Positions 1,976 through 3,327 of a stretch of 64,000 nt of DNA are shown one piece after another. The translations under genes were made by a program, and so were the position numbers. The stretch is from a virus (Duplodnaviria > Caudoviricetes). Every line of letters begins with the position of its first letter. Position 1 is the stretch's first letter. The stretch spans positions 1 through 64,000 of the IMG/VR virus record IMGVR_UViG_2974508059_000001; one strand, 5' to 3'. Below the pieces are notes generated by a model. It was not told where the DNA came from. It was given only the letters and a program-made list of their open reading frames with translations, and searched no databases.

Positions 1976-2051
1976 GCAGGCATAGCTCAGTTGGTAGAGC
2001 ATCTGATTTCCAATCAGAGGGTCGTCAGTTCGAACCTGACTGTCTGCTCCA
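1976..2051 (+). tRNA. tRNA-Gly(TCC)
   Basis: Cloverleaf; anticodon arm TCTGA-TTTCCAA-TCAGA; TTCGAA T-loop; encoded CCA. Confidence 0.95.
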
Positions 2052-2150
2052 GAAATGTAATTACAGGTTTACACTGTATTATGTACAAGACATGTGCGCT
2101 TAGCTAAACTGTTGCAAAAATAACAGGTTATCTCAGTACATATGTGCAAT

Positions 2151-2233
2151 GGTTGTGTCACGTTGGCGTGAGTTGGGTTTACGGCAGGCAAACGGACGTA
2201 AGCTCTTCGTGGTTCAATTCCACAGCACAGCCC
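2151..2233 (+). ncRNA. tRNA-like RNA with enlarged anticodon-position arm
   Basis: Acceptor GGTTGTG/CACAGCC, D-like CACG-TTGG-CGTG, 9-bp arm with 13-nt loop, T-arm GTGG-TTCAATT-CCAC; no CCA. Confidence 0.6.
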
Positions 2234-2255
2234 TCTTGTTATGTAAAAGAATTCT

Positions 2256-2340
2256 GGCGGGTTACTCAAGCGGCAACGAGAGCAGACTGTAAATCTGTTG
2301 ACTTCGGTCTTCGGTGGTTCGAGTCCACCACACGCCACCA
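2256..2340 (+). tRNA. tRNA-Tyr(GTA)
   Basis: Anticodon arm GCAGA-CTGTAAA-TCTGT, long variable arm, CCA end. Confidence 0.95.
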
Positions 2341-2345
2341 GTTAT

Positions 2346-2420
2346 ACACCCATCGTCTAGCGGTTAGGACCGCTGCCTTTCGAGCAGTTAACCGGGGTTC
2401 AAATCCCCGTGGGTGTACCA
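2346..2420 (+). tRNA. tRNA-Glu(TTC) copy 1 (loop CTTTCGA)
   Basis: Acceptor ACACCCA/TGGGTGT, T-loop TTCAAAT, CCA end. Confidence 0.9.
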
Positions 2421-2423
2421 AAC

Positions 2424-2499
2424 ATTCCCGTCATCTAGTTGGTAAGGATACGACACTTTCACTGTCGGTACACGAGTTCGAGTCTCGTCGGGAATACCA
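2424..2499 (+). tRNA. tRNA-Glu(TTC) copy 2 (loop CTTTCAC)
   Basis: Acceptor ATTCCCG/CGGGAAT, anticodon arm CGACA/TGTCG, CCA end. Confidence 0.93.
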
Positions 2500-2509
2500 A
2501 ACACAAGAC

Positions 2510-2617
2510 CGTAACCCTGCGGTGTGGTTAGTCGCCACTACTAGCGGTTACGCGATGCCCACTGCTGCGGGGTGTGTGATAGTGAGGTGGTTGACCCCAC
2601 CAAGCGAGCAGCGAGCA
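2510..2617 (+). ncRNA. Putative two-hairpin structured RNA between tRNA-Glu and tRNA-Trp
   Basis: Stems CGTAACC/GGTTACG, GTGG/CCAC, TGCTGC/GCAGCG, GGTGG/CCACC. Confidence 0.4.
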
Positions 2618-2622
2618 ATTTT

Positions 2623-2698
2623 AGGGAAGTAGTTCAATTGGTAGAGCGTCGGTCTCCAAAACCGGTTGTTGGAGGTTCGAGTCCTCTCTTCCCTGCCA
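2623..2698 (+). tRNA. tRNA-Trp(CCA)
   Basis: Anticodon loop CTCCAAA, TTCGAG T-loop, CCA end. Confidence 0.95.
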
Positions 2699-2704
2699 AA
2701 CAGT

Positions 2705-2781
2705 AGGACTGTAGCTCAGACGGTTAGAGTGCCGCCCTGTCACGGCGGAGGTCGCGGGTTCGAAACCCGTCAGTCCTGCCA
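2705..2781 (+). tRNA. tRNA-Asp(GTC)
   Basis: Anticodon arm CCGCC-CTGTCAC-GGCGG, G discriminator, CCA. Confidence 0.95.
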
Positions 2782-2786
2782 TATCT

Positions 2787-2876
2787 GGAGAATTGGATGA
2801 GTGGCTTAAGTCGCTCCCCTGCTAAGGGAGTGTATCCGAAAGGGTACCGTTGGTTCGAATCCAACATTCTCCGCCA
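2787..2876 (+). tRNA. tRNA-Ser(GCT)
   Basis: Anticodon arm CTCCC-CTGCTAA-GGGAG, long variable arm, CCA. Confidence 0.95.
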
Positions 2877-2882
2877 TTACAA

Positions 2883-3038
2883 TGACACCCGCACCTCAAA
2901 ACCCTGGGTATTGCACCCAGAAAAAGAGTGCTGGCAGCCAATAAAGGCATCCGTTAGTAACCGTAGCCTTCGGGCGTAGATGGTGAAGACCGCCAAGTGC
3001 AGCCTTTAGAACTCCGTGGGATTCGGAGGGGTGTCACC
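2883..3038 (+). ncRNA. About 155-nt expanded tRNA-like RNA (acceptor + T-arm geometry with large inserts)
   Basis: GACACCC/GGGTGTC closing stem stacked on CTCCG-TGGGATT-CGGAG, followed by A-CC; internal stems CTGGGT/ACCCAG and TAAAGGC/GCCTTTA. Confidence 0.55.
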
Positions 3039-3049
3039 TACACACGTTA

Positions 3050-3163
3050 AAAGGATCATCCTCCTTGGGCGAAACCAATGGGCGCGCGGGGTGTATAGTC
3101 TGGGGCAAAGCAATCCCAGATGAGTCGTCTGACGTTAACTCGTCAGGGGGCAAGCGGCCACAC
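3050..3163 (+). ncRNA. Putative multibranch structured RNA
   Basis: TTGG-GCGAAA-CCAA, TCTGGG/CCCAGA, CTGACG/CGTCAG, closing TGGGCGC/GCGGCCA. Confidence 0.4.
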
Positions 3164-3169
3164 AATTTC

Positions 3170-3245
3170 TCAACGGTAAGCAAAACTGTGATGCACTGTG
3201 CTCGCGAACAGATTAGGTGGGTTAGAATCCCATAACCGTTGACCC
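3170..3245 (+). ncRNA. Non-canonical/pseudo tRNA with 8-nt anticodon loop (CGC-like)
   Basis: TCAACGGT/ACCGTTGA acceptor, GCA/TGC D stem, CTGT-GCTCGCGA-ACAG, GTGGG-TTAGAAT-CCCAT T-arm. Confidence 0.6.
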
Positions 3246-3251
3246 TTTTAT

Positions 3252-3327
3252 TGGTGATTAGTTCAGTCGGTAGAACAGTGGACTGTTAATCCATATGTCG
3301 CAGGTTCGATTCCTGCATCACCAGCCA
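3252..3327 (+). tRNA. tRNA-Asn(GTT)
   Basis: Anticodon arm GTGGA-CTGTTAA-TCCAT, G discriminator, CCA. Confidence 0.95.

Follow-up and report, generated by a model that had tools for sequence, protein, structure and literature searches.

We identified a gene for a tRNA-shaped RNA without an anticodon at 2884–3038 (+) of the window, i.e. the 64,000-nt stretch of viral DNA analysed here, and comparison with homologous sequences confirmed that it is a real and previously unannotated gene. The phage record from which the window comes has 244,950 bp, of which the window covers the first 64 kb, and the nearest named relative of the source phage is Erwinia phage pEa_SNUABM_11 (Wellingtonvirus), with ∼81–85% nucleotide identity to the window in the tRNA region and 80% amino acid identity for a 603-aa protein. 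The gene is 155 bases long, lies within an array of eight co-oriented tRNA genes (1976–3327, +) and begins 7 nt past tRNA-Ser. Its fold and the way its helices have evolved indicate that it very probably encodes an expressed structured RNA of expanded-cloverleaf shape. Overall, we favour a reading in which this is a stable, non-decoding RNA that probably undergoes tRNA-type maturation and may act as a tRNA mimic, although several alternatives had to be weighed. The parts of the RNA and its leader are as follows.

2878–2883 (+), 5′ leader UACAAU; the family consensus is AACAAU, with U at −1
2884–2890 (+), 5′ strand of the acceptor stem, GACACCC, pairing with 3029–3035
2891–2931 (+), arm 1 at the D-arm position, 41 nt, with closing stem GCAC(C)UC/GAGUGC and A-rich internal loops
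within 2891–2931 (+), arm 1 hairpin CUGGGU-AUUGC-ACCCAG with a 5-nt loop
2932 (+), single-nucleotide junction U, like tRNA position 26; U in 19/22 members and C in 3/22
2933–3004 (+), arm 2 at the anticodon-arm position, 72 nt
2933–2939 with 2999–3004 (+), predicted closing helix of arm 2, GGCAGCC with GCAGCC around an A-A mismatch
2946–2948 with 2992–2994 (+), arm 2 helix GGC/GCC, preceded by internal loop AAUAAA/AAGU and followed by loop AUCC/C
2966–2975 (+), tip of the distal hairpin of arm 2, GCC-UUCG-GGC
3005–3011 (+), A-rich linker UUUAGAA at the variable-loop position; 6–7 nt and purine-ended in most members
3012–3028 (+), T arm CUCCG-UGGGAUU-CGGAG, with stem 3012–3016/3024–3028 and loop U3017–U3023
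3029–3035 (+), 3′ strand of the acceptor stem, GGGUGUC, pairing with 2884–2890
3036–3038 (+), discriminator A3036 and CC (3037–3038); the next base is U3039

An initial annotation of this DNA, made from the letters alone, had proposed a 7+5 acceptor/T helix with a TGGGATT loop and a following A-C-C. This is exact in the sequence: the 7-bp stem is stacked directly on the 5-bp T stem, giving 12 contiguous pairs. The same annotation placed two inserted domains at the D and anticodon positions. In agreement, RNAalifold, run on a plain, unfitted MAFFT alignment of 11 sequences, returned a four-arm structure consisting of the 7-bp acceptor stem, a 4-bp closure of arm 1, the closing helix of arm 2 and the T arm. 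The sizes given for the inserts (37 and 65 nt) were close but measure 41 and 72 nt, and the UUCG tip described for the second insert is present. Arm 1 is joined to the acceptor stem without a linker, and a 7-nt loop of the anticodon type is absent from the predicted folds of both arms (arm 2 ends in the UUCG tip and arm 1 in a 5-nt loop). Since both inserts sit exactly at the D-arm and anticodon-arm sites, the RNA can be described as an expanded cloverleaf. As ACC is followed by U3039, the CCA is incompletely encoded in this copy; an encoded CCA is present in all eight neighbouring tRNAs.

The minimum free energy (MFE) of 2883–3038 is −60.7 kcal/mol (z = −3.43), and 0/200 shuffled sequences were as stable. 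An equally good fold is obtained for the reverse strand; in the homologues, the acceptor-stem G-U pairs (14 cells of the alignment) are consistent with the + strand alone, which is the strand of the tRNAs. When the window was scanned with a geometric descriptor (7-bp stem, 5-bp stem, U....A.. loop and NCC), 7/8 tRNAs and the tRNA-shaped RNA were recovered, and a shuffled window gave ∼0.7 matches (both strands).

Other identities for the sequence were tried and rejected. It is not a tRNA proper, as RF00005 gave no match at E values up to 10, ARAGORN made no call over the RNA in the window or in 14 homologous loci, and there is no anticodon arm with a 7-nt loop. Indeed, no model in Rfam 15 matched 2884–3038, even at E = 10. 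An alternative 90-nt tRNA using GGCAUCC (2946–2952) as the 5′ acceptor strand was not conserved in relatives. A coding role was dismissed because the ORF at 2797–2979 has no Pfam match and the arm lengths of homologues differ by non-multiples of 3. Pairing between leader and trailer (ACAAU/AUUGU) was found in only a few members.

Homologues were gathered by BLAST against phage records, by pattern scans of IMG/VR and metagenomes, and with a covariance model built here (R1). The 22 distinct homologues obtained are spread over six jumbo-phage genera of enterobacteria (Wellingtonvirus, Erskinevirus, Machinavirus, Seoulvirus, Moabitevirus and Agricanvirus). In total, the family covers about 45 GenBank/RefSeq records, representing ∼33 named phages of Erwinia, Salmonella, Serratia and Pectobacterium. 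Among them are phiEaH2 and Asesino (Erskinevirus), Huxley, pEa_SNUABM_6/10/43 and pSal-SNUABM-04 (Machinavirus), SPAsTU and pEa_SNUABM_29 (part of Seoulvirus), and Ea35-70, RAY, AH06 and others (Agricanvirus). The Moabitevirus members Moabite, 2050HW and Pectobacterium phage ParM-25 carry two diverged copies each. Model R1 found one copy in the source genome and no match in the genomes of SPN3US, CR5 or T4. Its sole match in phiKZ was a true tRNA-Thr (23 bits), which shows how tRNA-like the family model is. Four IMG/VR scans and one metagenome scan added members from phage-type contigs only (viral records and metagenome contigs) and otherwise gave chance T-arm matches within genes, and a search of 185,579 bacterial and archaeal species genomes returned only chance matches of this kind. 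No GenBank or RefSeq record of the family carries an RNA annotation at the site. In Moabite, the hypothetical proteins CPT_Moabite_078 (1488–1610) and CPT_Moabite_080 (2062–2265) overlap both RNA copies and are probably mis-called ORFs.

In most phages, the RNA gene lies 5–8 nt downstream of a tRNA in a co-oriented array. The upstream neighbour is a CDS in SNUABM_29 and AH06 and an HNH gene in Special G, and the Agricanvirus phages Deimos-Minion, Special G and AH06 keep the RNA without a nearby tRNA. Some of the Agricanvirus phages that have the RNA contain no tRNA gene at all. Since the RNA is kept without neighbouring tRNAs, it is not tied to tRNA supply. The HNH endonuclease gene of Special G (687–1202), which is also present in MadMel, occupies the exact site of tRNA-Asn in related Agricanvirus phages and, in Special G, ends 4 nt before the leader of the tRNA-shaped RNA. 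This placement suggests a homing-type event in which the tRNA was replaced and the RNA left intact.

Covariation analysis, which the initial annotation had put forward as a check on the fold, was carried out on the 22 homologues, and they keep the 7+5 geometry. Across the alignment, 95.3% of cells are standard pairs and 18/24 pairs have changed on both sides; this alignment was fitted to the model, which favours structure, and its acceptor and T stems are unambiguous by eye. None of 500 shuffles reached the observed pairing and covariation (0/500), and sliding the partners against each other reduced pairing to 37–48%. In the acceptor stem, 96.8% of cells are paired, with compensatory variants such as GACACCC/GGGUGUC, GGUACCU/GGGUACC and GACGCCU/GGGCGUC. 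Pairing of the T stem is complete (100% of cells), all five pairs being kept through different sequences (CUCCG/CGGAG, CUCAG/CUGAG, CCAGG/CCUGG, CCACG/CGUGG and CUACG/CGUAG). All 4 pairs of the arm 1 closing stem covary, as does the 3-bp helix RGC/GCY of arm 2 (GGC/GCC to AGC/GCU).

The sequence outside these helices is conserved at sites that are typical of the tRNA frame. The T loop follows the pattern U-G-N-R-A-U/G-U, in which U54, R57 and A58 are invariant, together with G53-C61. Position 55 is always G rather than U55 and position 56 varies rather than being C56; therefore, the canonical elbow contact is not assured. At the 3′ end, NCC is found in 22/22 members, followed by C or U in 21/22 and by A in one (2050HW, ACCA). 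The discriminator can be A, U or G, and this variation leaves no evident shared aminoacylation identity. At the 5′ end, CAAU or CAAC precedes G+1 in 21/22 members (AAUUAU in AH06), whether a tRNA, a CDS or the HNH gene lies upstream. A U at −1 is also found in 6/7 of the neighbouring tRNAs listed by the descriptor scan. Together with the compensatory changes in the minihelix, these conserved positions (G53-C61, U54, R57, A58 and NCC) bear out the part of the initial annotation that described a tRNA-like scaffold.

The inserts are more variable. The interior of arm 1 takes at least four unrelated forms that are replaced between genera, usually with a purine-rich run (GAAGA or AAAAA) ahead of the 3′ closing strand, and in 2050HW the arm is just AUCU-CAAGA-AGAU, a D-arm-sized hairpin with a 5-nt loop. 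The distal part of arm 2 is 26–127 nt long, depending on the member. At its base, arm 2 keeps GGCAGCC/GCAGCC, AAUAAA, RGC/GCY and AUCC across four to five genera, and in most genera the arm is closed by GGCAGCC and (G)GCAGCC, which pair on either side of an A-A mismatch (in some members C-C or C-A). This closing helix, formed by box1 and box2, also appears in the MFE folds of Moabite and 2050HW, and in Machinavirus and close relatives its changes are wobble-preserving or mildly disruptive, with no clean double compensation, so the helix is taken only as likely. The GGCAGCC boxes are missing from the Moabite paralogues and the Agricanvirus forms, which still have the cloverleaf frame, the leader, the T loop and the ACC tail. 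Because the inserts are the most variable parts, selection acts on the tRNA-like core and the arm 2 base, and not on a displayed cargo. The initial suggestion that the scaffold displays a functional payload thus fits poorly, since the supposed payloads are the least constrained parts of the RNA.

Bacterial RNase P and the CCA-adding enzyme recognise the 12-bp minihelix, the T loop, U−1 and the 3′ RCC. As the universal features of the family are these same determinants, tRNA-type maturation is the most economical reading, and we regard it as probable for both ends of the RNA. In the proposed pathway, the gene would be transcribed from the + strand, usually within the transcript of the tRNA array. 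Host RNase P would then cut between U2883 and G2884 by reading the minihelix, U−1 and the 3′ RCC. The 3′ side would be trimmed to ...ACC, with the terminal A supplied by the host CCA-adding enzyme; the phage genome has no PolyA_pol-type CCA-adding enzyme, and no RtcB gene was found in it. The mature RNA of ∼155 nt is predicted to act via its tRNA-like core and the arm 2 base, both of which are conserved. Rather than decoding, it may occupy a protein that reads the acceptor/T-arm half of tRNAs, which could be a host tRNA-directed enzyme, a defence toxin or a phage factor. This mimic or decoy role is put forward tentatively. A narrower version, in which the RNA is a decoy or adaptor for an acceptor/T-arm reader that has long been kept in enterobacterial nucleus-forming jumbo phages, including those without tRNAs, is improbable as it stands. 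If it were true, the target may be a host toxin that attacks the 3′ ends of tRNAs, or the machinery that exports phage tRNAs from the phage nucleus. In this family, Asesino (Erskinevirus) and RAY (Agricanvirus) have been published as nucleus-forming phages (PMC11724907, PMC10299810). A protein encoded at about 16.2–18.0 kb of the window, labelled ChmA in the initial annotation, had no naming match in PDB, Pfam or PHROGs and has an orthologue in Asesino.

The same features could instead reflect a cis-acting processing element, whose fold only attracts RNase P (and RNase E) and thereby separates or end-stabilises the neighbouring RNAs, the excised piece being functionless. The location of the RNA between tRNAs, or directly after a CDS (SNUABM_29, AH06) or HNH gene (Special G), would suit such punctuation, and the invariant features are exactly the RNase P determinants (minihelix, U−1 and RCC) while the inserts are free to vary. 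However, the flanking tRNAs have their own processing signals, and the RNA persists in Agricanvirus members without an adjoining tRNA. Moreover, four to five genera share the arm 2 base, for which a simple cleavage signal would have no use, and two diverged copies are kept in Moabite-type phages, so we consider this explanation unlikely. A decaying, functionless tRNA pseudogene with insertions would be in keeping with the degenerate tRNA in the same array (3172–3241, 20.1 bits), but compensatory changes have maintained the helices in six genera. Such covariation contradicts decay, as does retention of the RNA where tRNAs have been lost, which makes a pseudogene extremely improbable. It is also very unlikely that the RNA is charged and works on or off the ribosome, as a reduced tmRNA-like rescuer or an aminoacyl donor. 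The acceptor/T minihelix with NCC, the full CCA of one member, and a frame AANKGIR-stop-stop that starts at GCA 2935 and has similar counterparts in the closest relatives would all be compatible with charging. Against this, G3-U70 is absent (the pair 3:70 is C-G or U-A), both 2:71 and 3:70 show free covariation, and the discriminator is not constant. The candidate tag (GCA GCC AAU AAA GGC AUC CGU UAG UAA) is not in frame in SPAsTU, SNUABM_29 and Machinavirus, where it is shifted or stays open through the T arm and past it. Neither the window nor any of 14 homologous loci received a tmRNA call from ARAGORN, and Rfam tmRNA models gave no match at E values up to 10. Thus, the initial view that the RNA is not a tmRNA holds, but its statement that there is no tag ORF needs amending, as a short, non-conserved frame does begin at 2935.

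A further alternative concerns the 5′ end. The conserved CAAU|G resembles the TATG of phiKZ, so the end could be set by transcription initiation instead of RNase P cleavage. In phiKZ, late promoters consist of TATG with G as +1, and single substitutions in TATG strongly reduce transcription (PMC4666361). By analogy, CAAU|G would be a TATG variant for the non-virion RNA polymerase and G2884 the start, with the fold serving stability or function and not 5′ processing. Several observations agree with an own promoter of this kind: phiKZ late transcripts start at the G of TATG (PMC4666361), TATG is threefold enriched upstream of ORFs in the source genome (81 versus 27.1 expected), AH06 has UAUG at the leader position, and the leader is conserved regardless of the upstream neighbour. 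In contrast, most members have AAUG or AACG and not TATG, which matters given that single substitutions are damaging in phiKZ (PMC4666361). In addition, the RNA gene lies a few nucleotides after a tRNA in a co-oriented array in most phages. The leader was also rejected as a general promoter, since ACAATG is not enriched upstream of ORFs in the source genome (3 versus 4.0 expected). A primary transcript from its own promoter is accordingly an unlikely account of the 5′ end. Separately from the leader, TATG and its extended forms (TTATG, CTATG, TATGA and TATGT) are 3–4 fold enriched in the 80 nt upstream of ORFs across the whole genome, and ACAATG is depleted in the window (23 versus 41.8 expected).

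Other elements were noted around the gene. A second conserved structured element, with no Rfam match, lies at 3039–3165, directly after the tRNA-shaped RNA. It is also present in a close relative (L006) and, after an intervening tRNA-Met, in pEa_SNUABM_11 (1805–1925), and its two hairpins show compensatory changes (GUCUGGGG/UCCCAGAU versus GUUCAGGG/UCCUGAAU). The degenerate tRNA-like gene at 3172–3241 scores below the 29-bit cut-off of the Rfam tRNA model and has the T loop UUAGAAU, which is the canonical UUCGAAU in L006. Inside the tRNA array, neither of the gaps at 2052–2255 and 2500–2622, flagged as structured modules in the initial annotation, received a tRNA call or an Rfam match. A 317-aa ORF (411–1364) immediately upstream of the RNA island has matches in the NMT1_3 and phosphonate-binding periplasmic solute-binding families, and such a gene is unusual in a phage. 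In relatives' arrays, an over-long 121-nt 'tRNA-Ile(aat)' annotation (Asesino, 1417–1537), a 94-nt ARAGORN tRNA-Ile(aat) (Huxley, 1880–1973) and a 'tRNA-???' call (L028, 7433–7526) may be further non-canonical tRNA-like genes.

For the annotation of these phages, our results correct about 45 GenBank/RefSeq records (33 named phages) in which the gene is missing or covered by small ORF calls, and they describe an RNA for which Rfam has no model. They also make it possible to look for partners of the tRNA-like core and for an effect of losing the RNA in hosts with tRNA-directed defences.

Several known RNAs share features with this family. It shares with tmRNA (SsrA, including reduced forms from phages and organelles), an RNA processed by RNase P, a tRNA-like acceptor/T-arm domain and a large insert where the anticodon arm would be; it differs from tmRNA in being without G3-U70, a conserved tag frame with resume codon and stop, or a P2 helix around the insert. 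In engineered tRNA scaffolds and mascRNA-type RNAs, a tRNA frame gives a non-decoding RNA RNase P processing, CCA addition and stability. Those RNAs carry a defined cargo or are eukaryotic, whereas the inserts of the jumbo-phage RNA are its least conserved parts. YrlA and other bacterial and phage Y RNAs (RF02553; PMC4201824) are comparable as non-decoding tRNA mimics found in some phages. In YrlA, however, the acceptor-like stem is capped and the RNA ends are located in the Ro-binding stem, whereas the termini of the jumbo-phage RNA form the acceptor stem. A Y RNA identity was rejected on these grounds, together with the lack of an Rfam match and of a TROVE/Ro60 gene (PF05731 was not found in the 245-kb record, and control genomes were positive). 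A 2023 catalogue of 10,006 viral candidate RNAs, in the parts consulted, mentions tRNA-like motifs in general (PMC10690425).

The closest known thing to the jumbo-phage RNA is T4 RNAC (species 1 RNA, gene rnaC), a stable RNA from the T4 tRNA region whose role is unknown according to reviews and a 2022 omics study (PMC3014915, PMC9697503). When folded here, T4 RNAC formed an acceptor-like stem CGAUUCG/CGUUUCG (7 bp, with two U-U mismatches) abutting the T arm CCGGG-UUCGAAU-CCCGG. The genes of both RNAs lie among phage tRNA genes and on the same strand as these (except in the Agricanvirus members without a tRNA), and both RNAs have a 7-bp stem on a 5-bp T arm, two hairpins inserted between the 5′ acceptor strand and the T arm, no anticodon and no linker after the acceptor strand. 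In contrast to the canonical UUCGAAU T loop, mismatched acceptor stem and unencoded CC of T4 RNAC, the jumbo-phage family combines a UGNRAUU loop and an acceptor stem free of mismatches with an invariant NCC and a conserved CAAU leader, and model R1 detected no homology in the T4 genome. The likeness is therefore one of layout and not homology, and the jumbo-phage RNAs form a new family of a known kind. Stable RNAs in phage tRNA clusters (T4 RNAC and RNAD) have been known for decades, and the jumbo-phage family provides a second, unrelated lineage with the same layout. If the decoy or adaptor reading were true, the same logic would explain the 50-year-old puzzle of T4 RNAC. With clear covariation, a defined core and members that are studied in the laboratory (RAY and Asesino), this old question is now testable.
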